DNA of 64,000 nucleotides from Candidatus Latescibacterota bacterium (GTDB lineage: Bacteria > Latescibacterota > UBA2968). The notes beneath the pieces are model-generated. The model saw nothing but the letters and a program-made list of their open reading frames with translations, was not told the origin of the DNA and ran no database searches. Made by a program: the position numbers and the translations under genes. Where the stretch lies: assembly GCA_965204745.1 (NCBI GenBank), contig OZ242010.1, positions 1,728,001 through 1,792,000 on the forward strand. The letters are read 5' to 3'. This document shows positions 13,218 to 62,384 of this stretch, one piece after another; the stretch's first letter is position 1; each line of letters starts with the position of its first letter.

Positions 13218-13223
13218 TACAAG

Positions 13224-13255: not shown

Positions 13256-13274
13256 GTGTACTCCTTTAATACAA

Positions 13275-13604: not shown

Positions 13605-13802
13605 TACGCCATCGGCTTGCACAAAGTCATCTGTTTTTGTATTCTCTATTGATCCTCGTTGATCGGAAGCCGTTAGAGGCAACCGCTCGCGCATTCGCCT
13701 CTCCGGCGATGAGGTCGTTTATACGAACCGCGGCACCTTTGCTTTGGATCACGTACCCGTGTGGACGATTTCTAATTACGGGCAAGGGCGCAGAGGGAAC
13801 AA

Positions 13803-33395: not shown

Positions 33396-34328
33396 ATGCA
33401 ACTAAAGAGAATAGTCGCGATTGTCTTGGTGGTCTTGACAGGTGCGATCACCACAGCCGAAGCCGTTGAGGTCGTTCTCAAATCCGGTCGCGTCGTGCGC
33501 GGCGAGTTGATTCGAGAAACCGCGACCTCGATTACGCTCCAACTGGCTTCCAGCCGAATCGAGATTTCCAAGTTGAGCATCAAAACCATTGACGGACGCT
33601 CCCCATTTGAACCGCGCAGAGCAACGTCCGCAACATCTGCGGACCTGTTCAACAAAGCCGAGGTGCGAATTTCCGCAGGCGAGTTTCTGATGGGCGATAC
33701 CCGTGACAAAAACGCGCCCGTCCACACAGTGCATCTCGACGCGTATTGGATCGACACGCACGAAGTGACCAACGTGCAGTACCGCGAATTTGTGGCGGAT
33801 AGCAAACGCGCGGAGCCCCGCTATTGGCAGGACGAAAAATACAACAAACCCGATCAGCCCGTCGTTGGGATCTCGTGGGAAGACGCGGATGCGTATTGTG
33901 CGTGGAAGGGCAAACGCCTGCCCACCGAAGCCGAATGGGAGCGCGCGGCCCGAGGCACGCACAGCCAGCTCTATCCATGGGGCGACCGGTTTGACGCCAC
34001 GCGCACCAACACCCGCGAAGCCCGAACCCGCCGCCCCCTTCCCGTGGGCGCGTTTCCGGAAGGCGCGACCAGCGAGGGCCTGCTCGATATGTCGGGCAAT
34101 GTGTGGGAATGGTGCTGGGATTGGTATGACGAATCCTATTATCGCATGTCCCCGCTTCGCAATCCCACCGGGCCGGAAACCGGAAAAAAGCGCGTCATCC
34201 GTGGCGGAGGCTGGAGCGCGCCGCAGATTCACATGGCGAAACGCAGGGGGGAAAAGCCGGATAAGACCTATCCCTCGCTGGGCTTTCGGTGTGCGCGATC
34301 AGATGGCAAAGGCGAGGGTAAAAGGTGA
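33396..34328 (+). CDS. Secreted FGE-sulfatase (SUMF1) domain protein
   Basis: Signal peptide; HEVTN, RLPTEAEWERAARG, YPWG, DMSGNVWEW, LGFRC. Confidence 0.9.
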   Translation: MQLKRIVAIVLVVLTGAITTAEAVEVVLKSGRVVRGELIRETATSITLQLASSRIEISKLSIKTIDGRSPFEPRRATSATSADLFNKAEVRISAGEFLMGDTRDKNAPVHTVHLDAYWIDTHEVTNVQYREFVADSKRAEPRYWQDEKYNKPDQPVVGISWEDADAYCAWKGKRLPTEAEWERAARGTHSQLYPWGDRFDATRTNTREARTRRPLPVGAFPEGATSEGLLDMSGNVWEWCWDWYDESYYRMSPLRNPTGPETGKKRVIRGGGWSAPQIHMAKRRGEKPDKTYPSLGFRCARSDGKGEGKR

Positions 34329-34549
34329 GAGGTGAGACGGGATTTTAGCCACAAAAGGCACAAAAGGCACAAAAGGTGAGACGGGAGAGGTAAGAGGCGA
34401 GAGGTAAGAGGCAAGAGGTAAGAGGCGAGAGGCGAGAGGCGAGAGGCGAGAGGCGAGAGGCGAGAGGTAAGAGGTAAGAGGCGAGAGGCGAGAGGCGAGA
34501 GGCGAGAGGCGAGAGGCGAGAGGCGAGAGGCGAGAGGCGAGAAGGCCAC
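34324..34549 (+). repeat. Composite purine-rich tract: GTGAGA(G/C), CACAAAAGGx3, ~22 G(T/C)(A/G)AGAG heptamers
   Basis: Begins at the upstream stop codon; ends GAGAAGGCCAC. Confidence 0.95.
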
Positions 34550-34638
34550 CCAACCCCAAAAGCGGATCGCGGATGAAATGCGAAATGTAGGGATAGGCTC
34601 CTGTGCTTGGTAAAAAGAGACGCGAAAGGAAGATAAAT

Positions 34639-35067
34639 ATGCGGATAGAGACCCACGAGCGGCTGGTCCGTGATGACCCGATTGAGCGGAGTTCCAATCG
34701 CGCCTTTGGCGTTGTGTTCACCGTTTTGTTCGTTGTTATTGGGCTGTTTCCGTTGCTCAATGGCACGTCGCCCCGCTATTGGTCGCTCGGCGTCGCCGGT
34801 GCCATCCTCATCGTGGCACTCGTCAAAGCGGACTGGTTGGCGCCGTTTAACAAGGTCTGGTTCAAGTTCGGCTTGCTCCTCCACCGCATTGTCAGCCCGA
34901 TAGTTTTGGCCCTGTTGTTCTACGCCGTGGTTGTGCCCACGGGGCTGATCATGCGCGCTTTGGGCAAAGACCTGTTGTGTTTGCAGTACGACCGCGAGGC
35001 CGAGAGTTACTGGATCCATCGCCATCCCCCCGGCCCGAATCCCGAATCCCTGAAAAACCAGTTTTGA
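34639..35067 (+). CDS. SxtJ-family membrane protein
   Basis: SNRAFG, APFNKVWFKFGLLLHRIVSPIVLALLFY..PTGLIMRALGKDLL, SYW, NQF end. Confidence 0.85.
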   Translation: MRIETHERLVRDDPIERSSNRAFGVVFTVLFVVIGLFPLLNGTSPRYWSLGVAGAILIVALVKADWLAPFNKVWFKFGLLLHRIVSPIVLALLFYAVVVPTGLIMRALGKDLLCLQYDREAESYWIHRHPPGPNPESLKNQF

Positions 35068-35075
35068 GGTTTGTC

Positions 35076-35225
35076 ATGTCCTTTCTCCGCGAACTTTGGC
35101 AATTTATGCGCGTCCGCAAAAAGTATTGGCTGTTTCCCATCATCGTCATGATGCTCGTGCTTGGCGGGCTTATCGTGCTGAGTCAAAGCAGCGCAGTCGC
35201 GCCGATGATCTACACGATTTTTTGA
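35076..35225 (+). CDS. DUF5989/SxtK-like small membrane protein
   Basis: MSFLRELWQFMRVRKKYWLFP...SAVAPMIYTIF, 49 aa. Confidence 0.85.
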   Translation: MSFLRELWQFMRVRKKYWLFPIIVMMLVLGGLIVLSQSSAVAPMIYTIF

Positions 35226-35228
35226 GCT

Positions 35229-37055
35229 ATGAAAATTCTCGGTATCTCCGCGTTCTACCACGACAGCGCCGCGGCCCTCGTAGATGACGGGCGAATTGTC
35301 GCCGCCGCGCAAGAAGAGCGGTTCACGCGCGAGAAGCACGACTCGGGCTATCCGACCAACGCTGTCGCTTACTGTCTCGATCAAGCCGGCATCGCGCTCG
35401 GTGAGATCGACCAGATCGCGTTCTACGACAAGCCCTTCCTCAAATTCGAGCGGTTGCTCGAAACCTACATCGCGTTCGCGCCGCGCGGGTTCCGCTCCTT
35501 CTACATGGCAGTTCCCGTGTGGATCAGGGAAAAGTTGTTTCAAAAAGACCTGTTGCGCCGGGAACTAAAAAAACGCGCCCCAGACGTGGATTGGAACGCC
35601 AAGTTGCTGTTCGCCGAACACCACCAATCGCACGCTGCGAGCGCGTTTTATCCGTCTCCCTTCCGAGACGCGGTCGTTTTAACCATGGACGGGGTCGGCG
35701 AGTGGGCCACCACCTCTGTGGGCATTGGTTGCGGCAACGAGTTGGAGATGACGCGAGAGATTCACTTCCCCCATTCCCTGGGGTTGCTCTACTCGGCGTT
35801 CACGTTTTACACGGGCTTCAAGGTCAATTCCGGCGAATACAAGGTGATGGGCCTCGCGCCTTATGGCGATCCGAAATACGCCTCGACCATTCTCGACCAT
35901 CTGATCGACTTGAAGCAGGACGGCACGTTCCGCCTGGACCTCTCCTATTTTGACTACTGCACCGGGCTAAAGATGACGAATGGCAAGTTCGACTCGCTAT
36001 TTGGCGGCCCGCCGCGCAAGCTAGATGAGCCGCTGACGCAACAGCACATGGATTTGGCGGCCTCCGTACAAGCCGTAGTCGAAAAAGCGGTATTGCGCTT
36101 GACCCGCTCATTGCGGGATGAGACCGGCATCCCCTATCTGTGTCTCGCGGGGGGTGTCGCGCTCAACTGCGTCGCCAATGGCAAGGTGCTGCGGGATGGG
36201 CGGTTTGAGGATATCTGGATTCAGCCGGCAGCCGGCGACGCAGGCGGTGCGTTGGGCGCCGCGTTGGCGGCGAGTCATCGCCTATTCGATGCGCCGCGTT
36301 ATTGTGAAGTTGGCGATGCTATGCGCGGCGCCTTGCTCGGTCCCGCATTTGATCAAGCCGCGATTCGCCACGCCCTCGACTCGGCCGGCGCGCACTACGA
36401 GGTGCTATCGGATAAGGCGTTGATCGACGCCACCGTGTCCGCGTTGGCGGATGGCAAGGCCGTGGGCTGGTTTCAGGGCCGGATGGAATTTGGCCCGCGC
36501 GCCCTCGGCAACCGGTCAATTTTGGCAGATGCGCGTTTGCCCACCATGCAAAAGACGCTCAACCTCAAGGTCAAGCACCGCGAATCCTTTCGCCCGTTCG
36601 CACCGAGCGTGCTGCGAGAGGATGTGTCGGATTGGTTCGATCTCGCGTGCGACAGCCCCTATATGTTGCTCGTGGCAGATGTGACGTCCAAACGGCGCAA
36701 GCGCGTGGCTGAAACGCTTTTCGGCATCGACCGCCTAAACGCACCGCACTCGGACATTCCCGCAGTGACGCATGTGGATTACTCGGCCCGCATCCAGACG
36801 GTCCATCGCGAGACCAACCCCCGCTACCACGCGCTACTCAAAGCGTTCAAGGCGAAAACCGATTGCCCGGTCATCGTGAACACCAGCTTTAACGTGCGCG
36901 GCGAACCCATTGTTTGCACGCCCGCTGACGCCTTCCGCTGTTTCATGGGCACGGACATCGACTGCCTCGCTATCGGCAATTGCTTCTTGGAAAAGGAAGA
37001 TCAGGATCCCTCGCTCAAAATTGAAAATTACGAGGACTCGTTCGAGTTGGATTGA
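35229..37055 (+). CDS. O-carbamoyltransferase (NodU/CmcH/SxtI family)
   Basis: YHDSAAA, AQEERF, EHHQSHAASAF, DGVGE, AGGVALNC, MEFGPRALGNRS, HRESFRPFAP, NTSFNVRGEP. Confidence 0.95.
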   Translation: MKILGISAFYHDSAAALVDDGRIVAAAQEERFTREKHDSGYPTNAVAYCLDQAGIALGEIDQIAFYDKPFLKFERLLETYIAFAPRGFRSFYMAVPVWIREKLFQKDLLRRELKKRAPDVDWNAKLLFAEHHQSHAASAFYPSPFRDAVVLTMDGVGEWATTSVGIGCGNELEMTREIHFPHSLGLLYSAFTFYTGFKVNSGEYKVMGLAPYGDPKYASTILDHLIDLKQDGTFRLDLSYFDYCTGLKMTNGKFDSLFGGPPRKLDEPLTQQHMDLAASVQAVVEKAVLRLTRSLRDETGIPYLCLAGGVALNCVANGKVLRDGRFEDIWIQPAAGDAGGALGAALAASHRLFDAPRYCEVGDAMRGALLGPAFDQAAIRHALDSAGAHYEVLSDKALIDATVSALADGKAVGWFQGRMEFGPRALGNRSILADARLPTMQKTLNLKVKHRESFRPFAPSVLREDVSDWFDLACDSPYMLLVADVTSKRRKRVAETLFGIDRLNAPHSDIPAVTHVDYSARIQTVHRETNPRYHALLKAFKAKTDCPVIVNTSFNVRGEPIVCTPADAFRCFMGTDIDCLAIGNCFLEKEDQDPSLKIENYEDSFELD

Positions 37056-37128: not shown

Positions 37129-38427
37129 ATGGCAGACTCCGAAACGCACGGCTTAAAAACGCCTCTGAGAAAAACCCGTCGTGTACTCCGATTGATCGGC
37201 TGGAACCTGTTACTTACGCTCGCGGGCTTGGCTTTGATCGCGCTGACTGGGGAAGTCTATCTCCGGCTGAAAAGGTCGATGATGCCGTTCACCACATGGA
37301 GATATCCCTTACACTTTGTCCCAAAGGTAGGTTTGATACCGAAACCCAACGCCGAGGTGCGCTGGACAAACCATCGTGATTTCTGGACCATCTCTCGAAC
37401 CAACAGCCTCGGGTTTCTCGACCGTGAACCCATCCGTTCTGAACGCGCCGCCGAAAGTTGTCACATCGCGATGATCGGAGATTCGTTCGTCCAAGCCAAA
37501 GAGGTGTCCATCGCCGATAAGTTTCATGTCCGCCTCGAAGAACTCGCCACCCAAGAGTTGCCCCACTTGGACATCACCACGTCGGCATTTGGGATAGGGG
37601 GCATCGGACAGATCAACCAACTGCCGTATTACGATGAATTTGCGCGGCATCTGTCTCCCAAACTCGTCGTGCTCGTTTTTGTTGACAACGACTTCAGGAA
37701 CAACACCCCTATCCTGGCCGCGTTGGATTGGAAAGTCCATCCGGACCGGCAACCATTCGTCACGGCAACAAGAGATGAGAACGGTACTATAAAACTGCGG
37801 CCACCCCACCCGGATTGGCAGAGGTTCCCGAGGTTCCCGAGGTTCATATTGCCCCAAGCCCTTGATAGGCATATCGTTAGGTACCAGCAACATTGGTCCT
37901 ACTTCGTGCAAGAGTTACGCCACAATATATCCGCCTTGTTTCCATCCCAATCTCCTTACCTGACTGCCTGGTTGAAATTATTGAGCGGAGACCCCGCCTA
38001 CGAATCGCTGTTTAATGGAGGGCAACCGAAGACTCTGGCGGATATCCCGCATCAGTTTGAGAAAAAGACTCTGTTGCCCGCCTTTAAGAAAGAGTTGGCG
38101 TTCACGGCTTTTGCCTTGGATCAATTTAAGGAACGCACCGAGCGCGACGGTGCCTCATTGGTCATCTTGGCGAGCTACACCATGGGCACTCGAGGTCATG
38201 CTCCCTTTGGTCACATGAGCGCCTTGACCGAGGTCCGCAACATTCCCGTTATTGACCAGTACGACTATATCCACCGTCAAGGTGCCGATCCTGAAAGAGA
38301 CCCGAGATGGGCAAACGATGGGCACTGGAATGTCGCCGGACATCAATGGGCTGCCGAAGCCCTGCTCGAATATCTCAAGGAAAACCCGGAAATTTGCACT
38401 CGGCCGGCAGACACAAGAGCACCCTGA
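37129..38427 (+). CDS. Membrane-anchored SGNH-family protein, copy 1
   Basis: N-terminal TM; IGDSFV, FVDND, DGHWN. Confidence 0.85.
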   Translation: MADSETHGLKTPLRKTRRVLRLIGWNLLLTLAGLALIALTGEVYLRLKRSMMPFTTWRYPLHFVPKVGLIPKPNAEVRWTNHRDFWTISRTNSLGFLDREPIRSERAAESCHIAMIGDSFVQAKEVSIADKFHVRLEELATQELPHLDITTSAFGIGGIGQINQLPYYDEFARHLSPKLVVLVFVDNDFRNNTPILAALDWKVHPDRQPFVTATRDENGTIKLRPPHPDWQRFPRFPRFILPQALDRHIVRYQQHWSYFVQELRHNISALFPSQSPYLTAWLKLLSGDPAYESLFNGGQPKTLADIPHQFEKKTLLPAFKKELAFTAFALDQFKERTERDGASLVILASYTMGTRGHAPFGHMSALTEVRNIPVIDQYDYIHRQGADPERDPRWANDGHWNVAGHQWAAEALLEYLKENPEICTRPADTRAP

Positions 38428-38482
38428 CACGCCTAAGATAGGGCACGAGACATTGGATGGAAAGAAAAAGGAAAGAAGTATC

Positions 38483-39760
38483 ATGGCAGACTCCGAAACG
38501 CACGGCTTAAAAACGCCTCCAGGAAAAATTCGCCATGTCCTGCGGGTGATCGCCTATAATGTTTTGTTCACGGTTATCGGTCTGGGTTTTATCGCGCTGA
38601 CTGGGGAAGTTTATCTTCGGCTGAAAAGGTCAATGCTTCCGTTCGCTACAGATAGATATCCCTTACACTTTGTCCCAAAGGTAGGTTTGGTGCTGAAACC
38701 CAACACCGAGGTGCGCGCGACAAACCATCGTGATTTCTGGACCATCTCTCGAACCAACAGCCTCGGGTTTCTCGACCGCGAACCCATCGGTTCTGACTGC
38801 GCCGCCGAAAGTTGTCACATCACCATGATCGGCGATTCCTTTGTTTTAGCCGGAGAGGTGCCCATCGCCGATAAGTTTCACGTTCGCCTTGAAGAACTCG
38901 CCGCCCGGCACCTGCCCCACTTGGACATCACCACGTCGGCATTTGGGATAAGGAACACCGGACAGATCAATCAACTGCCGTATTACGATGAATTTGCGCG
39001 GCATCTGTCTCCCAAACTCGTCGTGCTCGTTTTTGTTGACAACGACTTCAGAAACAACTCACCATTCCTGGCCGCGTTGTCGTGGAAAGTCCATCCGGAC
39101 CGGCAACCATTCGTCACGGCAACAAGAGATGAGAACGGTACCATAAAACTGCGACCACCCCACCCGGATTGGCAGAGGTTCCAGAGGTTCATATTGCCCC
39201 AACCCCTTGATAGGCATATCGTTAGGGACCAGCAACATTGGTCCTACTTCGTGCAAGAGTTGCGCCACGATATATCCGCCTTGTTTCCATCCCAATCTCC
39301 TTACCTGACTGCCTGGTTGAAATTATTGAGCGACCACCCCGCCTACGAATCGCTGTTTAATGGAGGGCAACCGAAGACTCTGGCGGATATCCCGCATCAG
39401 TTTGAGAAAAAGACGCTGTTGCCCGCCTTTGAGAAAGAGTTGGCGTTCACGGCCTTTGCCTTGGATCAATTTAAGGAACGCACCGAGCGCGACAAAGCCT
39501 CATTGGTCATCTTGGCGAGCTACACCATGGGCACTCGAGGTCACGGCTACTTTGATCACCTGAGTGCCTTGGCCGAGGTCCGCGGCATTCCCGTTATTGA
39601 CCAGTACGATTATATCCACCGTCAAGGTGCCGATCCTGAAAAAGACCCGAGATGGGCAAACGATTACCACTGGAACATCCAAGGTCATCAATGGGCCGCC
39701 GAAGCCCTGCTTGAATATCTCAAGGAAAACCCGGAAATTTGCAGAAAAAAAACGCCCTGA
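38483..39760 (+). CDS. Membrane-anchored SGNH-family protein, copy 2
   Basis: Paralog; IGDSFV, DYHWN. Confidence 0.85.
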   Translation: MADSETHGLKTPPGKIRHVLRVIAYNVLFTVIGLGFIALTGEVYLRLKRSMLPFATDRYPLHFVPKVGLVLKPNTEVRATNHRDFWTISRTNSLGFLDREPIGSDCAAESCHITMIGDSFVLAGEVPIADKFHVRLEELAARHLPHLDITTSAFGIRNTGQINQLPYYDEFARHLSPKLVVLVFVDNDFRNNSPFLAALSWKVHPDRQPFVTATRDENGTIKLRPPHPDWQRFQRFILPQPLDRHIVRDQQHWSYFVQELRHDISALFPSQSPYLTAWLKLLSDHPAYESLFNGGQPKTLADIPHQFEKKTLLPAFEKELAFTAFALDQFKERTERDKASLVILASYTMGTRGHGYFDHLSALAEVRGIPVIDQYDYIHRQGADPEKDPRWANDYHWNIQGHQWAAEALLEYLKENPEICRKKTP

Positions 39761-39869
39761 CGCATTTTAAGACAGAGCACGGGATGACGGGCAATAGGCA
39801 TAAAGACGGAACGCGCAGGCGGGAATGATCAGGAGCAAAACATGACTGCTAGAAAGGGAGAGATACATC

Positions 39870-41180
39870 ATGGCGGACACGGAGCCAAAAATCACAAATT
39901 CAATAAAAACGATAATTTATCCCCCCAGAAAAATTCGCCGTGTGTTGCGAGTGATCGTCTGTAATGTGTTATTCACGTTTATCGGTCTAGGTCTCATCGC
40001 GCTGACTGGGGAAGTCTATCTCCGGCTGAAAAGGCCAATGATGCCGTTCTCTACATATAGCTATCCCTTACATAGATATCCCTTACACTTTAGCCCAAAG
40101 GTAGGTTTGGTGCTGAAACCCAACGCCGAGTTGCACGCGATAAACCATAGTGATTTCTGGACCATCTCTCGAACCAACAGCCTCGGGTTTCTCGACCGTG
40201 AACCCATCCGTTCTGAACGCGCCGCCGAAAGTTGTCACATCACGATGATCGGCGATTCCTTTGTCCACGCCCAAGAGGTGCCCATCGCCGATAAGTTTCA
40301 CGTCCGCCTCGAAGAACGCGCCGCCCGGCACCTGCCCCACTTGGACATCACCACGTCGGCATTTGGGATAGCGAACACCGGACAGATCAACCAACTGCCG
40401 CTTTACGATGAATTTGCGCGGCATCTGTCTCCCAAACTCGTCGTGCTCGTTTTTGTTAACAACGACTTCAGGAACAACTCACCATTCCTTGCCGCGTTGT
40501 CGTGGGAAGTCCATCCGGACCGGCAACCATTCGTCACGGCAACAAGAGATGAGAACGGTACCATGAAACTGCGACCACCCCACCCGGATTGGCTGAGGTT
40601 CAGATTGTCCCAAGCCCGTGATAGGCATGTCGCTAAGGACCAGTACGTTAGGTCCTACTTCGTGCAAGGGTTACGCCACAATATATCCGCCTTGTTTCCA
40701 TCCCAACAGCCTTTGCCTAACTGGGTGAAACTTTTGAGCGACCACCCCGGCTACGAATCGCTGTTTAATGGATGGCAACCGAAGATTCGGGCGGAGATCC
40801 AGCAGCAGTTTGAGAAAAAGACGCTGTTGCCCGCCTTTGAGAAAGAGTTGGCGTTCACGGCCTTTGCCTTGGATCAATTTAAGGAACGCACCGAGCGCGA
40901 CGGCGCCTCATTGGTCATCTTGGCGAGCTACACCATGGGCACTCGAGGTCATGCTCCCTTTGATCACATGAGTGCTTTAGCCGAGGCCCGCGGCATTCCC
41001 GTTATTGACCAGTACGATTATATCCACCGTCAAGGTGCCGATCCTGAAAGAGACCCGAGATGGACAAACGATTGGCACTGGAATGGCGCCGGACATCAAT
41101 GGGCCGCCGAAGCCCTGCTCGAATATCTCAAGAAAAACCCGGAAATTTGCACTCGGCCGGCGGACAAAGGAACGCCCTGA
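39870..41180 (+). CDS. Membrane-anchored SGNH-family protein, copy 3
   Basis: Paralog; IGDSFV, DWHWN. Confidence 0.85.
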   Translation: MADTEPKITNSIKTIIYPPRKIRRVLRVIVCNVLFTFIGLGLIALTGEVYLRLKRPMMPFSTYSYPLHRYPLHFSPKVGLVLKPNAELHAINHSDFWTISRTNSLGFLDREPIRSERAAESCHITMIGDSFVHAQEVPIADKFHVRLEERAARHLPHLDITTSAFGIANTGQINQLPLYDEFARHLSPKLVVLVFVNNDFRNNSPFLAALSWEVHPDRQPFVTATRDENGTMKLRPPHPDWLRFRLSQARDRHVAKDQYVRSYFVQGLRHNISALFPSQQPLPNWVKLLSDHPGYESLFNGWQPKIRAEIQQQFEKKTLLPAFEKELAFTAFALDQFKERTERDGASLVILASYTMGTRGHAPFDHMSALAEARGIPVIDQYDYIHRQGADPERDPRWTNDWHWNGAGHQWAAEALLEYLKKNPEICTRPADKGTP

Positions 41181-41331
41181 CACGCCTAAGACAGGGCATG
41201 GGATTGACGGGCAATAGGCATAAGCAGGCGGGAAGAAACGCGCACAATCGGCTTCACAAGAAGACAAAGACGCCTTATCGGGCAACGCCGCCCTGGCAAG
41301 CCCTATCAGGCAAACAGAACGAGATTCAGCC

Positions 41332-42882
41332 ATGCACGCACGGCGCAAATTGCCCATCGGCATTCAGACCTTTCGCGAGATTCGCACACAGAACCACTAC
41401 TACGTCGACAAGACCGCCTACATTCGGCGGCTGGTGGACGAAGGCAAGCATTACTTTCTTTCCCGGCCACGGCGGTTTGGCAAAAGCCTGCTGATCGATA
41501 CCCTCAAGGAACTGTTTGAGGGCAACGAGCCGCTGTTTGAGGGGTTGGACATTCATGCGTGCTGGGACTGGTCGGTTCGCTACCCTGTGGTGCGGCTGAG
41601 CTTTGGCGGAGGCGACTTCAAGGTGCCGGGTTACTTACACACGAACCTGATGGCGCAGTTGGACGCCGTCGAACGACAGATGCAAGTGGTTTCCAAATAC
41701 GCCACGGCACCGGAGCGTTTCGGCCATCTCATCGAGATGTTGCACATCCGCGCTGGGCAACCCGTCGCGGTGCTGGTGGACGAATACGACAAGCCGATCT
41801 TAGATGCGCTGGAGCAACCGGCGGTCGCCCGGGACAACCGCGACTTTCTGCGCGGCCTCTATGGCGTCATCAAGGACTGCGACGCGCATGTCAAGTTCAC
41901 CCTGTTGACTGGCGTGAGCAAGTTCTCCAAGGTCAGCCTGTTCTCCGGTCTCAACAATCTCAGGGACATCACCCTCGCTTCGCGCTACTCCGCCTTGTGC
42001 GGCTACACCGATGCGGACCTAGACACGGTATTTGCGCCGGAACTCCCCGGCTTAGACCGAGACGAGATCCGCCGCTGGTACAATGGCTACAACTGGCTGG
42101 GCGAGGAGAAAGTCTATAACCCCTTTGACATCCTCCTGCTCTTCGCCGAGCGCAAATTCGGTGCCTACTGGTTCGAGACCGGCACGCCGGCTTTTCTGCT
42201 CGACATGCTGGTGGCGCGTGGAGTCGGTGCCCTAACACTCGACAACCTGCTCGGCAGTGACGAGTTGCTGTCCGCCTTCGATGTCGATCACATCGCCACC
42301 GAGGCCCTGTTGTTCCAGACCGGCTATCTGACCATCCAAAAGGCAGAAGACCGCGGCGGGCAAATGTTCTACCGGTTGGGCTATCCGAACCGGGAGGTGC
42401 GGCAGAGCCTGAACAGAAGCCTGCTGAACCGCTTGACGGAAAACCCCTCGCGCCAGACCCAGCACAGTGCCCGGTTGTTCGACCTGTTGCTGGTCAACGA
42501 CTTCGCCGGCTTGGAGGCACTGTTCAAGGCTTTCTTCGCCGGCATTCCCTACCAGTGGCACGCGAAGAACAACATCGCCGATTACGAGGGCTATTACGCC
42601 AGCGTGTTCTATTCCTGCTTCGCGTCGCTAGGGTTGGACATCACCGTAGAAGACAGCAGCAGTCATGGTCGTCTGGATATGGCGGTGGTCTTCAACGACA
42701 ACGTGTATTTGTTCGAGTTCAAGGTGGTGGAGAATGCCTCTGTAGGCGCGGGACTGGCGCAGTTGCGGGCGCGAGGTTACGCGGATAAGTATCGGCCTCT
42801 GGGGCATCCGATTCACCTGGTCGGGGTGGCGTTCAGCAAGGCGACCCGCAACGTGGCGGCCTTTGAGGTGGCGCAGGCGTGA
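41332..42882 (+). CDS. AAA-ATPase-like protein with C-terminal PD-(D/E)XK nuclease
   Basis: LPIGIQTF, YYVDKT, RPRRFGKS, LVDEYDKP, GRLDM..FEFK. Confidence 0.9.
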   Translation: MHARRKLPIGIQTFREIRTQNHYYVDKTAYIRRLVDEGKHYFLSRPRRFGKSLLIDTLKELFEGNEPLFEGLDIHACWDWSVRYPVVRLSFGGGDFKVPGYLHTNLMAQLDAVERQMQVVSKYATAPERFGHLIEMLHIRAGQPVAVLVDEYDKPILDALEQPAVARDNRDFLRGLYGVIKDCDAHVKFTLLTGVSKFSKVSLFSGLNNLRDITLASRYSALCGYTDADLDTVFAPELPGLDRDEIRRWYNGYNWLGEEKVYNPFDILLLFAERKFGAYWFETGTPAFLLDMLVARGVGALTLDNLLGSDELLSAFDVDHIATEALLFQTGYLTIQKAEDRGGQMFYRLGYPNREVRQSLNRSLLNRLTENPSRQTQHSARLFDLLLVNDFAGLEALFKAFFAGIPYQWHAKNNIADYEGYYASVFYSCFASLGLDITVEDSSSHGRLDMAVVFNDNVYLFEFKVVENASVGAGLAQLRARGYADKYRPLGHPIHLVGVAFSKATRNVAAFEVAQA

Positions 42883-42967
42883 TCGACCATTGCTTGTTGC
42901 AAAAAGAAGATCAGGATCCCTCGCTCAAAATTGAAAATTACGGGGACTCGTTCGAGTTGGATTGAGG
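42881..42967 (+). repeat. Duplicated 3' end of the carbamoyltransferase gene
   Basis: GAAGATCAGGATCCCTCGCTCAAAATTGAAAATTACG(G/A)GGACTCGTTCGAGTTGGATTGAGG also at ~36996-37057. Confidence 0.9.
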
Positions 42968-43030
42968 AATGCAGACAGAACGCGCAGGCGGGAAGAACAC
43001 GGGCATATTGCAAAAAAGGAAAGAAGTGTC

Positions 43031-44314
43031 ATGGCAGACCCCGAAACACACGGCTTAAAAACGCCTCCAAGAAAAACCCGTCGTGTACTCCGATTGATCG
43101 GATGGAACCTGTTACTTACGCTCGCGAGCTTGGCTTTGATCGCGCTGACCGGAGAAGTCTATCTCCGGCTGAAAAGGTCAATGATGCCGTTCTATATAAA
43201 TAGATATCACTGGCACTTTGTCCCAAAGGTAGGTTTGGTGACGAAACCCAACGCCGAGATGCACATGACAAACCATCGTGATTTCTGGACCATCTCTCGA
43301 ACCAACAGCCTCGGCTTCCTCGACCGCGAACCCATCAGTCCCGAACGCGCCGCCGAAAGTTGTCACATCGCGATGATCGGCGATTCCTTTGTCGAAGCCA
43401 AAGAGGTGTCCATCGACGATAAGTTTCACGTCCGTCTCGAAGAACTCGCCACCCAAGAGTTGCCCCACTTGGACATCACCACGTCGGCATTTGGGATAGG
43501 GGGCATCGGACAGATCAACCAACTGCCGTATTACGATGAATTTGCGCGGCATCTGTCTCCCAAACTCGTCGTGCTCGTTTTTGTTCAAAACGACTTCAGG
43601 AACAACTCCCCTATCCTGACCGCGTTGTGGCGGGCTGTCCATCCGGACCGACAACCATACGTCACGGCGACAAGAGATGAGAACGGTACCATAAAACTGC
43701 GACCACCCCATCCGGATTGGCAGAGGTTCAGATTGCCCCGAGCCCGTGATAGGCATATCGGTCAGGACCAGCACGTTAGGTCCTACTTCGTGCAAGGGTT
43801 ACGCCACAATATATCCGCCTTGTTTCCATCCCAACATCCTTACCTGCTGCCTGACCGGATGAAATTATTGAGCGGACACCCCGGCTACGAATCGCTGTTT
43901 AGTGGATGGCAACCGAAGACTCTGACGGAGATCCATCAGCAGTTTGAGAAAAAGACGCTGTTGCCCGCCTTTGAGAAAGAGTTGGCGTTCACCGCCTTTG
44001 CCTTGGATCAATTTAAGGAACGCACCGAGCGCGACGAAGCCTCATTGGTCATCTTGGCGAGCCACACCATGGGCACTCGAGGTCATGCTCCCTTTGATCA
44101 CATGAGCGCCTTGGCCGAGGTCCGCAACATTCCCGTTATTGACCAGTACGACTACATCCGCCGTCAAGGTGCCGATCCTGAAAGAGACGCGACATGGGCA
44201 AACGATCCGCACTGGAATGTCGCCGGACATCAATGGGCTGCCGAAGCTCTGCTCGAATATCTCAAGGAAAATCCACAAGTTTGTACAAGACCGGCAGATA
44301 TAGGAACGCCCTGA
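43031..44314 (+). CDS. Membrane-anchored SGNH-family protein, copy 4
   Basis: Paralog; IGDSFV, DPHWN. Confidence 0.85.
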   Translation: MADPETHGLKTPPRKTRRVLRLIGWNLLLTLASLALIALTGEVYLRLKRSMMPFYINRYHWHFVPKVGLVTKPNAEMHMTNHRDFWTISRTNSLGFLDREPISPERAAESCHIAMIGDSFVEAKEVSIDDKFHVRLEELATQELPHLDITTSAFGIGGIGQINQLPYYDEFARHLSPKLVVLVFVQNDFRNNSPILTALWRAVHPDRQPYVTATRDENGTIKLRPPHPDWQRFRLPRARDRHIGQDQHVRSYFVQGLRHNISALFPSQHPYLLPDRMKLLSGHPGYESLFSGWQPKTLTEIHQQFEKKTLLPAFEKELAFTAFALDQFKERTERDEASLVILASHTMGTRGHAPFDHMSALAEVRNIPVIDQYDYIRRQGADPERDATWANDPHWNVAGHQWAAEALLEYLKENPQVCTRPADIGTP

Positions 44315-44369
44315 CACGCCTAAGACAGGGCACGAGACATTGGGCAAAAAGAAAAAGGAAAGAAGTATC

Positions 44370-45659
44370 ATGGCAGACTCCGAAACGCACGGCTTAAAAA
44401 CGCCTCTAAAAAAAATCCGCCGTGTCCTGCGAGTGATCGCCTGTAATGTGTTATTCACGTTTATCGGTCTGGGTTTTATCGCGCTGACCGGAGAAGTCTA
44501 TCTCCGGCTGAAAAGGCCAATGATGCCGTTCTCCACAAGGATATATCCCTTGCACTTCGTCCCAAAGGTAGGTTTGATGCTGAAACCCAACGCCGAGGTG
44601 AACTGGACAGACCATAATGATTTCTGGACCATCTCTCGAACCAACAGCCTTGGGTTTCTCGACCGTGAACCCATCCGTTCTGAACGCGCCGCCGAAAGTT
44701 GTCACATCACTATGATCGGCGATTCCTTTGTCTTAGCCAAAGAGATGCCCATCGCCGATAAGTTTCACGTTCGCCTTGAAGAACGCGCCGCCCGGCACCT
44801 GTCCCACTTGGACATCACCACGTCGGCATTTGGGATAGCGAGCACCGGACAGATCAATCAACTGCCGTATTACGATGAATTTGCGCGGCACCTGTCTCCC
44901 AAACTCGTCGTGCTCGTTTTTGTTCAAAACGACTTCAGGAACAACTCCCCTATCCTGACTGGGTTATGGCAGGGAGTCCATCCGGACTGGCAACCATTCG
45001 TCACGGCAACAAGAGCCGAGAACGGTACCATAAAACTGCGACCACCCCGCCTGGATTGGGAGAGATTCAGATTGCCCAGACTACACAAATCCCTCTATGT
45101 GCGTATCGTTGAATACCTGAGTCTGAGTTCCTACTTCGCGCAAGGGTTACGCAACAATATATTCGCCTTGTTTCCATCCCAATATCCTCACCTGACTGAC
45201 CGGGTGAAATTATTGAGCGAACTCCCCGCCTATGAATCGCTGTTTAATGGATGGCAACCGAAGACTCGGGCGGAGATCCAGCAACAGTTTGAGAAAAAGA
45301 CGCTGTTGCCCGCCTTTGAGAAAGAGTTGGCGTTCACGGCCTTTGCCTTGGATCAATTTAAGGAACGCACCGAGCGCGACGGCGCCTCATTGGTCATCTT
45401 GGCGAGCCACACCATGGGCACTCGAGGTCACGGCTACTTTGATCACATGAGTACTTTGGTCGAGGCCCGCGGCATTCCCGTTATTGACCAGTACGACTAC
45501 ATCCGCCGTCAAGGTGCCGACCCTGAAAGAGACGCGACATGGGCAAACGATCAGCACTGGAATGTCCAAGGCCACCAATGGGCTACCGAAGCCCTGCTCG
45601 AATATCTCAAGGAAAATCCACAAGTTTGTACAAGACCGGCAGATATAGGAACGCCCTGA
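44370..45659 (+). CDS. Membrane-anchored SGNH-family protein, copy 5
   Basis: Paralog; IGDSFV, DQHWN. Confidence 0.85.
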   Translation: MADSETHGLKTPLKKIRRVLRVIACNVLFTFIGLGFIALTGEVYLRLKRPMMPFSTRIYPLHFVPKVGLMLKPNAEVNWTDHNDFWTISRTNSLGFLDREPIRSERAAESCHITMIGDSFVLAKEMPIADKFHVRLEERAARHLSHLDITTSAFGIASTGQINQLPYYDEFARHLSPKLVVLVFVQNDFRNNSPILTGLWQGVHPDWQPFVTATRAENGTIKLRPPRLDWERFRLPRLHKSLYVRIVEYLSLSSYFAQGLRNNIFALFPSQYPHLTDRVKLLSELPAYESLFNGWQPKTRAEIQQQFEKKTLLPAFEKELAFTAFALDQFKERTERDGASLVILASHTMGTRGHGYFDHMSTLVEARGIPVIDQYDYIRRQGADPERDATWANDQHWNVQGHQWATEALLEYLKENPQVCTRPADIGTP

Positions 45660-45713
45660 CACGCCTAAGACAGGGCACGAGACATTGGAAGAAAGAAAAA
45701 GGAAAGAAGTATC

Positions 45714-46985
45714 ATGGCAGACTCCGAAACTCACGGCTTAAAAACGCCTCCGAGAAAAACCCGTCGTGTACTCCGATTGATCGGCTGGAACCTGTTACTT
45801 ACGCTCGCGGGCTTGGCTCTGATCGCGCTGACTGGGGAAGTCTATCTCCGGCTGAAAAGGTCAATGATGTCGTTCTATATAAATAGATATCCCTTACACT
45901 TTGTCTCAAAGGTAGGTTTGATGCTGGAACCCAACGCCGAGGTGCGCTCGATAGACCATCGTGAGTTCTGGACCATCTCTCGAACCAACAGCCTCGGCTT
46001 CCTTGACCGCGAACCCATCGGTTCTGACCGCGCCGCCGAAAGTTGTCACATCGCGATGATCGGCGATTCCTTTGTCGAAGCCACCGATGTGCCCATCGCC
46101 GATAAGTTTTACGTCCGTCTCGAAGAACTCGCCGCCCGGCACCTGCCCCACTTGGACATCACCACGTCGGCATTTGGGAAAGGGGGCACCGGACAGATCA
46201 ACCAACTGCCGCTTTACGATGAATTTGCGCGGCGTCTGTCTCCCAAACTCGTCGTACTCGTTTTTGTTGATAACGACTTCAGGAACAACTCACCATTCTT
46301 TGCCGCGTTGTCGTGGAAAGTCCATCCGGACCGGCAACCATTCGTCACGGCAACAAGAGATGAGAACGGTGCCATAAAACTGCGACCACCCCACCCGGAT
46401 TGGCAAGGGTTCAGATCCCAAGCCCCCCCTGATAGGCGTCTCGCTGAGGACCAGCACGTTAGGTCCTACTTCGTGCAAGGGTTACGCTACAATATATCCG
46501 CCTGGTTTCCATCCCAACCTTCTTACCTGCCTAACTGGGTGAAACTTTTGAGCGACCACCCCGCCTATGAATCGCAGTTTAATGGATGGCAACCGAAGAC
46601 TCGGGCGGAGATCCATCAGCAGTTTGAGAAAAAGACACTGTTGCCCGCCTTTGAGAAAGAGTTGGCGTTCACGGCCTTTGCCTTGGATCAATTTAAGGAA
46701 CGCACCGAGCGCGACGAAGCCTCATTGGTCATCTTGGCGAGCTACACCATGGGCACTCGAGGTCACGGCCCCTTTGATCACATGAGTGCTTTGTCCGAGG
46801 TCCGCGGCATTCCCGTTATTGACCAGTACGACTACATCCTCCGTCAAGGTGCCGACCCTGAAAGAGACGCGACATGGGCAAACGATTGGCACTGGAATGT
46901 CGCCGGACATCAATGGGCTGCCGAAGCTCTGCTCGAATATCTCAAGGAAAACCCGGAAATTTGCACACAAGAAAAAACGCCCTGA
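45714..46985 (+). CDS. Membrane-anchored SGNH-family protein, copy 6
   Basis: Paralog; IGDSFV, DWHWN. Confidence 0.85.
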   Translation: MADSETHGLKTPPRKTRRVLRLIGWNLLLTLAGLALIALTGEVYLRLKRSMMSFYINRYPLHFVSKVGLMLEPNAEVRSIDHREFWTISRTNSLGFLDREPIGSDRAAESCHIAMIGDSFVEATDVPIADKFYVRLEELAARHLPHLDITTSAFGKGGTGQINQLPLYDEFARRLSPKLVVLVFVDNDFRNNSPFFAALSWKVHPDRQPFVTATRDENGAIKLRPPHPDWQGFRSQAPPDRRLAEDQHVRSYFVQGLRYNISAWFPSQPSYLPNWVKLLSDHPAYESQFNGWQPKTRAEIHQQFEKKTLLPAFEKELAFTAFALDQFKERTERDEASLVILASYTMGTRGHGPFDHMSALSEVRGIPVIDQYDYILRQGADPERDATWANDWHWNVAGHQWAAEALLEYLKENPEICTQEKTP

Positions 46986-47013: not shown

Positions 47014-47817
47014 TTAGCGGTCATTTGATTTGGCGTCAATCTGATAATGCCCGGTGAGCCAGTGATAGCGAATCAGCAACAGGTCGCGCACCATTCGATA
47101 GGTGTCCCGAAGAAAGTTCACCTTGCTTTCGGCGCGCCAATGCCATTCAATGCCCACTTCTGCGATTGAGAATCCCAAGCGGCGTGCCAGAAACAGCAAT
47201 TCGACATCGAAACAAAAGCCGTCAATCGTCTGCAATGGGAACAACGCTTGCGCCGCACGCGCCGAGAACACCTTGAATCCGCATTGCGTATCGGCGATGC
47301 CCGGCACGGCCAGCAGGCGCACGATAGCGTTGAAAACCCGCCCCCTCAGATGGCGCCTAAGTGGCTCGCCAACGCGCTGCGAGCCGGCGGCTTCTCTGGA
47401 GCCGACGGCGATGTCTGCACCGTCAAACTCGTCCGCAGGCAACAGTCGCGTGAGATGCGCGATGGGCATCGACAGGTCCGCGTCGCATAAGCAGCGGTAT
47501 TGGCCTCGCGCCGAGAGCATCCCATTTCGCACGGCCCAGCCCTTGCCCCGATGCGGCAGGTCGAGCACGCGGAGATTGGCACCGCTTTGATCGGCGATGT
47601 CCTGCGCGACAGCAGCCGTGGCGTCAGCACTGCCATCGTCAGCCACGATGATCTCCCATTCGTAACATTGTCGTTCGAGATAATCGAGAATGGTCGCCAG
47701 CGTATCCGGCAGACGGCTTTCTTCGTTGTAAGCGGGAATGACTATGGAGAGGAATGGATCAGGCGGCGAATGCGACATTGAAAATCTCTGCTGTGCAGGT
47801 GAAAGGTGGGGTTGCAA
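47014..47817 (-). CDS. GT2 glycosyltransferase, polyprenyl-phosphate glucosyltransferase-like (start may be 47778)
   Basis: SIVIPAYNE, DDGS, GKGWAV, DADL, DTQCGFK, FDVELL. Confidence 0.88.
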   Translation of the reverse strand: MQPHLSPAQQRFSMSHSPPDPFLSIVIPAYNEESRLPDTLATILDYLERQCYEWEIIVADDGSADATAAVAQDIADQSGANLRVLDLPHRGKGWAVRNGMLSARGQYRCLCDADLSMPIAHLTRLLPADEFDGADIAVGSREAAGSQRVGEPLRRHLRGRVFNAIVRLLAVPGIADTQCGFKVFSARAAQALFPLQTIDGFCFDVELLFLARRLGFSIAEVGIEWHWRAESKVNFLRDTYRMVRDLLLIRYHWLTGHYQIDAKSNDR

Positions 47818-54730: not shown

Positions 54731-55491
54731 AATCAAAAAAAAAATTGAGCCAGCATTTTCTCGTCAATGCCGCGTCTGCTACACAGATCGTGGAAGCCGC
54801 GCAAATTGGCAACGAGGACTCGGTCGTAGAAATCGGCCCTGGCCGCGGCGCATTGACAAACCTCTTAGTCGCCCAAGCGAACCGGGTCATCGCCATTGAA
54901 ATCGACGAAAAACTGTGCGACCTGCTCGCCGCGCGATTCGGGTCGCAACTACAACTCGTCCGCAAAGACGTGCGCCAAGTCAATTTGCCCGCGCTCGTGG
55001 AATCCAAAGCAATTCTGGTGGGCAACTTGCCCTATCACCTCACGGGCGCGCTCATCAGGCAGATTACGGATGCGCGCAGGGTTTGGAAACGCGCTGTGAT
55101 CACAGTACAACGCGAAGTCGCACAGCGCATGATCGCACAGCCGGGTAGCAAAACCTACGGCGTGTTGTCTATCGTCACGCAGGTGCGATGCGCGGCAACC
55201 CGGTTATTTGACCTGCCGCCCACGCATTTTTTTCCCGCGCCCAAGGTGCATTCGTCCGTGTTAATGCTGGATTTTCAAGCCCCTTCTGCTTATGATATTG
55301 CAAACGAAAGGCGTTTGTTCGGCATCGTGCGCGCCGCATTTCAGCAACGGCGAAAAATGGTGCGAAATGCACTCGCCCATGTGGTAGATGCCGAGACGCT
55401 GATGGCGGCAGAGGTCGATGGTCGCGCCCGTCCGGAAACCATCTCTATCGCCGGCTATGAACGGATTTGCCGCGCAATGGCAATGCGATAA
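54727..55491 (+). CDS. rsmA: 16S rRNA dimethyltransferase RsmA/KsgA
   Basis: LSQHFL, VEIGPGRGALT, GNLPY, QREVA, FQQRRK, RPET. Confidence 0.95.
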   Translation: MKSKKKLSQHFLVNAASATQIVEAAQIGNEDSVVEIGPGRGALTNLLVAQANRVIAIEIDEKLCDLLAARFGSQLQLVRKDVRQVNLPALVESKAILVGNLPYHLTGALIRQITDARRVWKRAVITVQREVAQRMIAQPGSKTYGVLSIVTQVRCAATRLFDLPPTHFFPAPKVHSSVLMLDFQAPSAYDIANERRLFGIVRAAFQQRRKMVRNALAHVVDAETLMAAEVDGRARPETISIAGYERICRAMAMR

Positions 55492-56493
55492 CTTTTAGAG
55501 AAAAGAGAAAACCCTTGTTGAATATTCGCCTCTACTTGTTCGCAAATGTGATGATGCTGGCCTTGACCGCATGCGGGGGTGAGAAGTACACCTCAGCTTC
55601 GTTCCCCAAGCCTATTCCGGCAACTGAAGGAGCCATTACAGTGACCATCGCCGAGTTCGCGTCTTTGCCCGATATCAGCGACGGTCGAGTAGCGCCGATG
55701 ATGTTGCTCGTCGATGAACCGGGCACGGGCCGCTTGTTTGTGAACGACCAGTCTGGCGTATTGTACAGTGTCAGTTACGACGGGCGCACTGTTGTGCCCT
55801 TTCTCGATCACACTGACGCGCTATGGGGAATCAAGGTACGAAGAAAAAACTCGCATCCACAAGACATACGCGAGTTACGCGGATTTCATAGTTTCGCTTT
55901 CCACCCGCAGTTCGCCGAGGCGAGCACACCGGGGTTCGGTAGGTTCTACACCTTTTTAGAATCGCGCAACGAAACCGATGATCTACTCCTGCTGGAGTGG
56001 ACAGCGGCGGATCCCTACGCCGCGTTCTACGATGGCGGCCCGCCGAGGGAACTCATGCGGAAGCCATGTAAGGATCATTGCTCCGGTATGCTCGGCTTCA
56101 ATCCAAGTGCAACCCCCGGGGATACCGACTTTGGGCTACTTTACATGTCGATAGGTGATGGATTAAACTCAGGTGAAGTTAAACGCAGCCTTGTCTCTCA
56201 AGATCTGAGCGAGATATTCGGCAAGATACTCCGCATTGACCCGCTTGGGTCAAACAGCACCAATGGGCAGTACGGCATTCCCGCGGACAACCCATTTGTC
56301 TCAACGCGCAATGCGCTCGCCGAAATCTACGCCTACGGCATGCGCCACCCGCAACGCTTTGGCTGGGATGTACGAAACGGCAATCTGTTCGTCGCAGACA
56401 TCGGTGAGTACCAGGTTGAGGAGATCAGCCTCGTCCCTGCTGGAGCCAACCTCGGCTGGCCTAATTGGGAGGGGAGTTTTATGCCTGTTGACG

Positions 56494-57477: not shown

Positions 57478-58075
57478 TGACGATTGGCGCGACGACTGGC
57501 GCATCATCTTCAGACTGGGCGAGAATGTGGTTCGGGCGATCCGGGAAGGGCACTTTCGGATCCAGCGTCCTTATGATCACCATGTCTTCAGTTACCGTAG
57601 CGACCCCAGCATCACCTATCCCGTTGTCGAGTTTGACCACTATGACCCATTATTAGGAGGAGACAGAGTCGCCATAACCGGTGTCGTCGTTTACCGTCAC
57701 GCTGCGATTCCCCAACTCGAGAACACGGTGCTCTTTGGCGACTTGGTCAGCGGCGAGGTGTTCTATTTTTCTGCGGACGACCTGCCCGAAGGCGGTCAAG
57801 CCGCCATTCGCCGGGTGCGGTTTGAGCATCGGGGCGAAACAAAGACCCTGTTGCAGATGATCCAAGAGAAGAATATCGCGCAGGGACGCGAGCCTGCTCA
57901 CCGTGCGGATATGCGATTCGGCACAGGGCCGAATGGGCAGATATTCTTGCTCAACAAGCAAGACGGGATCATTCGCCGCCTCATGCCGTAGTACCTGGAC
58001 AAAAAAATGGCAGTGATTGCCTACATTTTTGCCGCGTAATGGCGACGCAATAACTTTTAACGAAAGGGAGTTTCG

Positions 58076-58996: not shown

Positions 58997-59072
58997 CCTG
59001 AAAATCGGCGATCACCGGCGAACTTTACCGCGCAATGACAATGCGATAACTTTTAGCGAAAGGAGAAAACCC

Positions 59073-60560: not shown

Positions 60561-60688
60561 CACCTAAAAAAACAAACCGTTTAATACGACCAACTCTTGA
60601 AGGTGACTGGCGAAAAAATGGCAATGATTGCCTACATTTTTGCCGCGCAATGGCAATGCGATAACTTTTAGCAAAAGAAAGAAAACCC

Positions 60689-62260: not shown

Positions 62261-62384
62261 TACCTGAAAAAAAATCGCTCAATGCGGCCTCCTCCTGAAG
62301 GCGAACAAAAAAAATGGCAGTGATTGCCTACATTTTTGCCGCACAATAGCAATGCGATAACTTTTAGCGAAAGGAAGAAAACCC

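Follow-up and report, generated by a model that had tools for sequence, protein, structure and literature searches.

Introduction

Saxitoxin clusters contain a four-gene segment, sxtI, sxtJ, sxtK and sxtL (1839, 405, 165 and 1281 bp, respectively, in the accessible portion of PMC2679770), the members of which share one phyletic pattern according to the available part of PMC2684587. SxtL is a GDSL lipase, with a decarbamoylase role that is a proposal only in the accessible text of PMC2885083 and PMC2679770. Here, we analyzed a locus that resembles this segment in a window of 64,000 nucleotides (nt; forward strand) from the genome of Candidatus Latescibacterota bacterium (contig OZ242010.1, positions 1,728,001 to 1,792,000), where genes for an SxtJ-family protein, a DUF5989 protein and a carbamoyltransferase are followed by a tandem array of six homologous SGNH genes on the same strand, denoted S1 to S6 (37129–46985, plus strand; coordinates refer to the window and residue numbers to S1 throughout). 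In our interpretation, to which we assign a probability of about 60%, the array comprises six non-redundant versions of an extracytoplasmic, membrane-anchored SGNH serine esterase or transferase with distinct specificities, which was built by duplication, homogenized by conversion and diversified by selection around an unchanged Ser/His machinery.

As in the saxitoxin segment, so far as the cited excerpts describe it, the module combines a carbamoyltransferase, SxtJ, a membrane protein of approximately 50 amino acids (aa) and a GDSL/SGNH protein of approximately 426 aa; the corresponding genes measure 1827, 465, 153 and 1272–1311 bp, and the window copies encode 423–436 aa compared with the 426 aa of SxtL. 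Judged by context and size only, the SGNH genes could be counterparts of sxtL, the GDSL-lipase gene that follows sxtI-J-K. The gene order differs, however, being J-K-I-L in the window, and, whereas the saxitoxin clusters have one sxtL each in the excerpts cited, six diversified copies are found here. No other sxt core genes were detected among the Pfam matches of the window open reading frames (ORFs) scanned. Our literature search yielded nothing on DUF5989 and, among the titles listed, nothing on such SGNH arrays, and the SxtL literature, supplements excluded, provided pathway proposals only.

In structural comparison of the predicted model using VIA-align, the best match is CgnD (8a2n; Z 17.9, root mean square deviation 3.6, 234 residues aligned across model positions 57–416, among them those of the N-terminal beta part), compared with Z scores of 11.4–13.1 for the remaining 49 listed entries. 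CgnD, an esterase-like hydrolase, frees the crocagin core from its leader by cutting a peptide bond; it has an Asp325/His328/Ser79 triad and, like the window copies, is accompanied by a carbamoyltransferase in its gene cluster (accessible part of PMC10070186). The Ser/His/Asp triad is shared, but identity is 17%, without a sequence-level match in the PDB, where a search with the family profile gave no hits at E<=1; moreover, the CgnD described in that text is soluble and has a D-x-x-H motif. Partners typical of peptides made by the ribosome and modified after translation (RiPPs; CgnB/E-type binding proteins, a dioxygenase) were not detected among the Pfam matches of the window ORFs scanned, a search that did not extend to small precursor genes.

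With canonical SGNH hydrolases, such as Escherichia coli TesA/TAP and carbohydrate esterases, the window copies share the core fold and blocks I (GDS), II (Gly) and III (N-D), but they differ in having a block V of the form D-x-H-W and, as additional elements, a membrane helix at the N-terminus, a beta part and a helical insertion of approximately 100 residues. The glycan O-acyltransferase systems OafB, PatB and AlgX/AlgJ employ periplasmic SGNH domains that work with membrane partners. PatB (7trr) is among the structural matches (Z 11.4), PF16822 (ALGX) is precomputed on 2 of 120 listed homologs, and the D-x-H-W motif resembles that of AlgX/AlgJ. However, unlike AlgX, the window copies keep the canonical motif order, and the window contains no AT3 or MBOAT partner, the partner module being that of the carbamoyltransferase.

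Results

Six SGNH paralogs with an unchanged catalytic machinery

S1 (432 aa) occupies 37129–38427, with GDS at 37477–37485, G155 to G160 at 37591–37608, D-N-D at 37684–37692 and D-G-H at 38317–38325. It is followed by S2 (425 aa, 38483–39760; D-Y-H at 39662–39670) and S3 (436 aa, with two small N-terminal insertions, 39870–41180; D-W-H at 41070–41078) and then, beyond an intervening gene, by S4 (427 aa, 43031–44314; D-P-H at 44204–44212), S5 (429 aa, 44370–45659; D-Q-H at 45549–45557) and S6 (423 aa, 45714–46985; D-W-H at 46884–46892). All 6 of the 6 matches to this family in the genome, which is a single contig of 5,482,115 bases, lie in the array.

A preliminary description of this DNA had reported open frames and conserved catalytic S, D and H, with variable residues beside them and long identical stretches, and on inspection of all six copies these particulars are accurate. 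The six ORFs are open, GDS, N-D and D-x-H are present in six of six, and the longest identical runs measure 57–150 nt. The residue after GDSFV is Q/L/H/E/L/E and that two positions further on is K/G/Q/K/K/T; FG is followed by IGGI/IRNT/IANT/IGGI/IAST/KGGT, N-D is preceded by D/D/N/Q/Q/D, and the x of D-x-H is encoded by GGG/TAC/TGG/CCG/CAG/TGG. The eight sites thus singled out are 122, 124, 156–159, 186 and 398.

The catalytic machinery itself is nearly constant across the family. In an alignment of 124 near-full-length genes (11 of the 135 extracted ORFs were dropped as partial), G117, S119, H399 and W400 are invariant, and the oxyanion-hole blocks II and III are kept, with G155, G160 and N187 each found in 122 genes. 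D397 is present in 112 genes and replaced by N in 11, and the cysteines C111 and C423 occur in 124 and 123 genes, respectively. Net charge in these 124 genes falls from +3.9 ahead of the membrane helix to +0.5 behind it; the sequence features suggest an N-in, C-out anchor, which would place the catalytic domain outside the cytoplasm.

An AlphaFold (AF2) model built from 66 relatives (predicted local distance difference test score 81.8, predicted template modeling score 0.80) consists of a long N-terminal helix, a small beta part (61–90), an alpha/beta core and, at approximately 236–310, a helical insertion that is poorly predicted. In Foldseek, the core matches TesA and other SGNH enzymes and esterases with probability 1.0 and template modeling scores of 0.66–0.71 normalized to the target; as modeled, the protein is an SGNH fold with the three-layer alpha/beta/alpha arrangement. 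PF13472 is precomputed on many homologs, and the only NCBIfam match is a weak one to LA_2490 (19 bits, the cut-off being 325).

Several of the variable positions are wedged into this machinery. The catalytic Asp and His enclose site 398, the x of the G-x-N-D-type block is site 186, 156–158 lie between the two conserved glycines of the oxyanion loop (G155 and G160), and 124 follows the nucleophile at a distance of five residues. The geometry of the chain requires 398, 186 and 156–158 to sit within a few angstroms of catalytic residues, and in the model all of these sites, including 124, are in loops at the C-terminal ends of the core strands, which form the active-site face of SGNH enzymes. Judging solely from adjacency along the chain and SGNH topology, these residues would line the substrate pocket.

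Diversifying selection beside the catalytic residues

Given that six sequences cannot carry site tests, arrays from other genomes were used as independent replicates. Because about 40 genes of at least 19 loci from several phyla are intermixed in the protein tree, the genes were regrouped into 15 disjoint clusters, namely, that of the window and 14 independent ones, with 26 of the 124 genes left as singletons. Because of recombination, changes were counted without a tree: for each codon column and group, a minimum spanning tree was drawn over the distinct codons, its steps were split into synonymous and nonsynonymous, and the counts were compared with the synonymous rate of the group.

In the 14 clusters without the window, the eight sites pooled yield a nonsynonymous-to-synonymous rate ratio (omega) of 1.61 (bootstrap over clusters 1.32–1.88), with values above 1 in 12 of the 14 clusters, and 13 sites reach q<0.05, including 398, 157, 124 and 158. 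When the synonymous rate was taken locally (+/-10 codons), 157, 124, 398, 158, 57, 82, 59 and 156 remained at q<0.05, with omega of 2.0–2.9, and these eight sites stand out repeatedly, in 10–12 of the 14 independent clusters. Site 186 was weaker (omega 1.69, q 0.3). The catalytic residues show no nonsynonymous change (N=0), and in the negative control, 17 carbamoyltransferase genes subjected to the same counting, omega is 0.21 and none of the 608 sites reaches q<0.05. Thus, the diversifying selection that had been suspected from the window alone is supported by data independent of it, at 157, 124, 398, 158 and 156 and less strongly at 186, and we consider it highly probable that selection at these sites is positive. 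It is not confined to the motif flanks, given that equally high scores are reached in the N-terminal beta part by 57, 59 and 82. Regions 191–210, 231–250 and 301–320 have raised synonymous counts as well; their local-rate signal is approximately 1.4–1.8, and only site 304 stays significant.

Comparisons within arrays provide a complementary view. The ratio of nonsynonymous to synonymous divergence (dN/dS) is 0.45–0.90 in the 23 arrays with synonymous divergence (dS) below 0.45, the other 5 of the 28 arrays, with mean dS of at least 0.45, having been left out, and that of neighboring carbamoyltransferases is 0.12–0.29 at similar dS. The signature formed by sites 124, 156, 157, 158, 186 and 398 is identical in none of 143 within-array pairs, whereas random sets of six columns are identical in a mean of 29.4 of 128 pairs, with a minimum of 1 in 3000 draws.

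A likelihood grid (GY94-type model, kappa 3.04, M0 omega 0.43, FastTree topologies with one tree per cluster, fixed synonymous rate) favored a mixture allowing omega>1, with twice the log-likelihood difference amounting to 447 without the window, 277 when the large mixed cluster was excluded as well, and 135.6 in the window alone. Sites 124, 186 and 398 were flagged both in the independent data and in the window, joined by 157 in the former and by 122 in the latter.

Mosaic structure of the window copies

Pairwise DNA identity among the six copies is 86.1–91.1%, with 311 of 1263 ungapped nucleotide positions polymorphic and the residue varying in 149 of 421 ungapped columns. The three codon positions contribute variable nucleotides in nearly equal numbers (103/84/124), which is unusual under ordinary purifying selection, and 22 codons vary at all three positions compared with 6.1 +/- 2.3 expected (0 of 5000 shuffles reach 22). 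In a GENECONV-like test on the longest concordant polymorphic run (2000 permutations), 7 of the 15 pairs are significant at p<0.005, and the nearest paralog switches from segment to segment along the gene; therefore, the six copies are mosaics, of the kind that gene conversion would produce.

The first 45 codons, which include the N-terminus and the membrane helix (37129–37260 and equivalents), fall into two old types, S1/S4/S6 and S2/S3/S5, with a synonymous difference of 0.31–0.39. The 5' intergenic junctions partition differently, into S1/S3/S4 and S2/S5/S6.

The carbamoyltransferase module and its conservation

The first gene of the operon, at 34603–35067 (plus strand, as are the two that follow), encodes a small membrane protein of the SxtJ family (PF19588, E 1.3e-6, 29.5 bits with a cut-off of 24.4). 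Next is the DUF5989 protein of 50 aa with one predicted membrane helix, which has the position and size of sxtK (35073–35225; PF19451, E 2.8e-26), and then the NodU/CmcH-type carbamoyltransferase of 608 aa (35229–37055; Carbam_trans_N 1.5e-108, Carbam_trans_C 1.9e-75). Across phyla, SxtJ and DUF5989 have mean column identities of 71% and 85%, respectively (15 sequences each). The SGNH array is probably co-transcribed with these genes. A promoter and terminator scan gave fewer matches than in shuffled sequences, and complex prediction for SxtJ, DUF5989 and SGNH scored 0.07 against a mark of 0.32, which points in neither direction.

This synteny is conserved. Among 63 loci of other genomes, 19 have a near-full carbamoyltransferase just upstream, 17 of these together with SxtJ and DUF5989, and 10 more retain only the last 40–130 carbamoyltransferase codons, ending approximately 80 nt before the SGNH start. 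In the window itself, a remnant of the carbamoyltransferase 3' end precedes S4 (42879–42962, plus strand; 79% identity to carbamoyltransferase residues 581–608, also evident in the DNA alignment of upstream regions). These scars indicate that the duplicated or transferred unit starts inside the carbamoyltransferase 3' end. The flanks of six arrays without a carbamoyltransferase contain no common partner, and a plasmid homolog annotated as 'SGNH/GDSL hydrolase family protein' has no carbamoyltransferase nearby. Of 10 clusters of relatives for which names were looked up, 8 are unnamed and 2 are 'hypothetical protein'.

The array is split between S3 and S4 by a gene with AAA-ATPase_like and PDDEXK_9 domains (41332–42882, plus strand; Pfam 3.3e-64 and 7e-20), which belongs to a multi-copy family with seven close copies in the genome. 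The six further copies, with 75–80% identity and some in tandem, are at G000:C1 3580634–3587227, 4900687–4904002 and 4805467–4807002, and in sponge metagenome contigs the depth over this gene spikes by a factor of more than 10. Downstream of the array, a family-2 glycosyltransferase gene (47014–47817, minus strand; Glycos_transf_2, 1.4e-30) is convergent with the array and is also found in a related genome (locus L022, tblastn, 12851–13648, minus strand).

Taxonomic spread and probable gene exchange

A word-indexed search scored 8000 candidates and returned 2211 relatives, and 380 representative clusters at E<=1e-30 emerged when the profile search was exhaustive. Within the genus, the family is present in only 1 of 20 other genomes, there in many copies. 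The 63 loci, obtained by scanning one genome per species, are by record title from metagenome-assembled genomes (MAGs) of Latescibacterota, Nitrospirales, Pseudomonadales and other Gammaproteobacteria, Alphaproteobacteria, Binatia, Entotheonella, Bryobacterales, Vicinamibacterales, Terriglobia, Chloroflexota, Caldilineaceae and Longimicrobiales, phylum assignment resting on these titles and our own grouping. Tandem SGNH arrays of 2–9 copies occur in 28 of these loci, in assemblies many of which are titled as one-contig chromosomes.

SGNH genes are 97% identical at the nucleotide level between Nitrospirales and Gammaproteobacteria and 96% between Vicinamibacterales and Pseudomonadales, and carbamoyltransferase genes of different phyla have dS as low as 0.1–0.2. 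The SGNH identity of 95–97% combined with this low carbamoyltransferase dS suggests recent transfer of the whole module across phyla. The locus pairs L031/L037, L054/L038 and L032/L034 combine MAGs titled as different phyla with SGNH genes that are 95–97% identical in DNA.

Many relatives (P0042, P0047 and P0056 among them) carry an extra C-terminal domain of approximately 130 aa after a proline-rich linker, which has no Pfam match. It is present twice in P0056, ends larger proteins, and also occurs in tandem on its own (for example, L030 9429–9740, L034 9408–9755 and L081 3702–4784); the six window copies lack it.

The array was found in runs labelled sponge metagenome, among 15 runs of seven studies, and metagenome pieces that are 95–100% alike cover all 30 bins in four runs of four studies. 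Short-read contigs break up inside the array, and none of the listed pieces spans it. Single contigs differ from the window at codon 122 of S5 (TT>GA, run X2) and codon 158 of S6 (G>A, run X1), and low-depth contigs of run X7 (2.7–2.8) contain the joints 41204>39785, from the end of S3 to its own upstream region, and 42905>36996, linking the AAA gene's end to the carbamoyltransferase tail that precedes S1. The X7 joints may be copy-number or conversion variants of the array, and all of these differences may represent strain or structural variants or cross-mapping of paralogs; neither the codon differences nor the joints were used as evidence.

Other features of the window

Enzymes of sulfur groups are encoded near the module, namely, an arylsulfotransferase-like gene and a sulfotransferase (10118–13148) and a gene of the FGE-sulfatase family (33396–34328), and in locus L022 an apparent adenylylsulfate kinase, recognized by eye, is directly upstream of SxtJ (2100–2730). 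Between the FGE-sulfatase and SxtJ genes is a 7-nt tandem repeat in 24 copies (34374–34542), which we considered as a phase switch of the operon and set aside: with 92 arrays of at least 6 perfect heptamer copies genome-wide, such repeats are a habit of the genome rather than a feature of the operon. Farther away are a NotI-like restriction endonuclease with a D12-class adenine methyltransferase in a stretch of low GC content (13803–15664; 0.46–0.50 compared with approximately 0.56) and four tandem glucose/sorbosone dehydrogenase paralogs (55467–63839), partly separated by a DDE transposase gene (56577–57470).

Discussion

We propose that the array arose by tandem and block duplication, with the carbamoyltransferase remnant still standing before S4, and that the copies keep swapping segments by gene conversion, so that most of the sequence stays alike; the long identical DNA stretches are attributed to this conversion between copies. 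Positive selection would repeatedly replace the x of D-x-H, the residues enclosed by G155 and G160 and the fifth residue after the nucleophile of GDS, less strongly the x before N-D, and likewise the loops of the N-terminal beta part. Given that the replaced residues are wedged between invariant catalytic ones, each copy would provide a different environment around the same Ser/His machinery. Most likely, the copies form a repertoire that differs in specificity for the substrate or acceptor and that, along with the carbamoyltransferase module, handles ester or carbamoyl groups; the chemistry could be hydrolysis or transfer, of carbamoyl or of acyl groups. As for the variable surface modification suggested in the preliminary description, the evidence extends as far as a probably extracytoplasmic, membrane-anchored enzyme linked to a carbamoyltransferase module.

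Several observations weigh against this interpretation. Whole-gene Nei-Gojobori dN/dS is 0.39–0.70, that is, below 1 in all 15 pairs of window copies, and sliding windows over the GDS and D-x-H segments score only 0.33–0.44, the hot codons being diluted by invariant motif residues. Only 3 of the 12 columns with at least four residues (122, 124 and 398) flank catalytic residues, the others falling in the N-terminal beta part and the 200–290 region, and hypervariable columns show no enrichment at the motif flanks when the window is taken by itself; the earlier wording, 'hypervariable beside the catalytic residues', is thus true as a description, but in six sequences alone these flanks are indistinguishable from the rest of the gene. 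Within the window, no single site reaches q<0.05 by the tree-free count, and the eight-site omega of 2.8 comes from sites that had been picked for their variability; outside it, two of the named sites, 122 and 159, have omega <1 by counts and likelihood alike, so that for these two the expectation of dN/dS above 1 failed. Single-tree likelihood finds 17 positive sites in the window, but recombination is evident and can inflate this method, for which reason the likelihood analysis as a whole is weighted below the counts. In cross-validation, the top-20 sites of one half have in the other half an omega of approximately 1.4 relative to the gene-wide synonymous rate and only 0.86–1.14 relative to their own synonymous counts, such that much of the signal in the 200–310 'lid' is compatible with near-neutral evolution or local divergence. 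At the level of the family, the Pfam models Lipase_GDSL and Lipase_GDSL_2 score 17.0–27.3 bits in the six copies, below the gathering cut-offs (23.6 and 32.9), and block V is D397-x-H399 rather than the canonical D-x-x-H, which is a variant of the motif and not its absence.

Some of these points would also be accounted for by relaxed purifying selection after duplication, whereby redundant copies drift and the variable positions are unconstrained loop residues. The whole-gene ratios fit such drift, being higher in younger arrays (0.64–0.88 at dS of approximately 0.03–0.12), as do the return of the cross-validated sites to an omega of about 1 against their own synonymous counts and the lid at 243–281, which combines low model confidence with omega of approximately 1.0–1.2. 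However, neutral sites cannot exceed an omega of 1, whereas eight sites stay at 2.0–2.9 after local correction and recur across independent clusters; given that the lid, the least constrained stretch, stays near 1, the motif sites stand above a neutral-like baseline. Redundant drift also agrees poorly with six open frames in the window, with 124 of 135 family ORFs near full length and with a signature that no within-array pair has in common. On balance, we regard relaxed constraint as an unlikely explanation of the pattern.

A second alternative is an arms race, in which changes around the active site let the enzyme evade an inhibitor or binding protein of a host or competitor. Escape from inhibitors has been proposed for the active-site clefts of some defense enzymes. 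The focus of selection right beside the catalytic residues and on surface loops is what such escape would produce, the organism occurs in sponge metagenome runs, and movement of the genes between phyla at up to 97% nucleotide identity would be expected under habitat-specific pressure. Nevertheless, we know of no such inhibitor, which counts against this scenario, and the protein is apparently anchored in the envelope of the cell itself instead of being secreted. Furthermore, divergent copies are kept side by side with no signature repeated within an array, which fits division of labor better than serial escape. We therefore find serial escape rather improbable.

The two remaining alternatives appear extremely improbable. 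Targeted mutagenesis, by a diversity-generating retroelement or another codon-directed mechanism, could generate whole-codon changes such as the 22 triple-variable codons, but no reverse transcriptase was found among the window ORFs scanned with Pfam (12 at E<=0.01, 35 at E<=1e-5; not every ORF was scanned), the codons of site 398 use all four bases as opposed to adenine-specific changes, and the variable sites are scattered over 1.2 kb, with no single template-sized tract, and vary in dozens of genomes of different phyla. An assembly artefact, with collapsed or chimeric repeats mimicking paralogs, might be suspected from the fragmented short-read contigs, but the genome is one contig, copies that differ by 9–14% in DNA are easy to resolve, all 30 bins are covered in four runs of four studies, and comparable arrays exist in 28 loci of other assemblies.

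With the array of diversified specificities as the preferred interpretation, we can tentatively go one step further, to a possibility that we consider distinctly less probable than the core proposal: the arrays could be a horizontally shared cassette system, in which the carbamoyltransferase 3' tail serves as the recombination anchor and copies are stacked behind the conserved module, selection keeping the active-site surround of each copy unique, so that the repertoire would be community-wide and open-ended. If this holds, the (de)carbamoylating or (de)acylating specificities would be aimed at molecules of the host or of neighbors, and the system would be an enzymatic analog of variable-receptor gene families.

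Duplicated enzymes under positive selection are a familiar phenomenon. What appears to be undescribed in the literature searched is that the selection centers on positions within catalytic motifs, that it recurs across phyla in tandem arrays, and that it is linked to a module of the sxtIJKL type. Selection on residues embedded in catalytic motifs is uncommon in bacterial enzymes, and here it is recurrent, against a clean negative control in the adjacent gene. Copies that are nearly identical in different phyla suggest that genes are being actively exchanged. The results mark a family that is uncharacterized, and a four-gene module otherwise familiar only from saxitoxin clusters, of which it is the unexplained sxtI-J-K-L corner, as having a specificity under constant pressure, and positions 124, 156–158, 186, 398, 57, 59 and 82 offer a few handles for learning what these enzymes act on.

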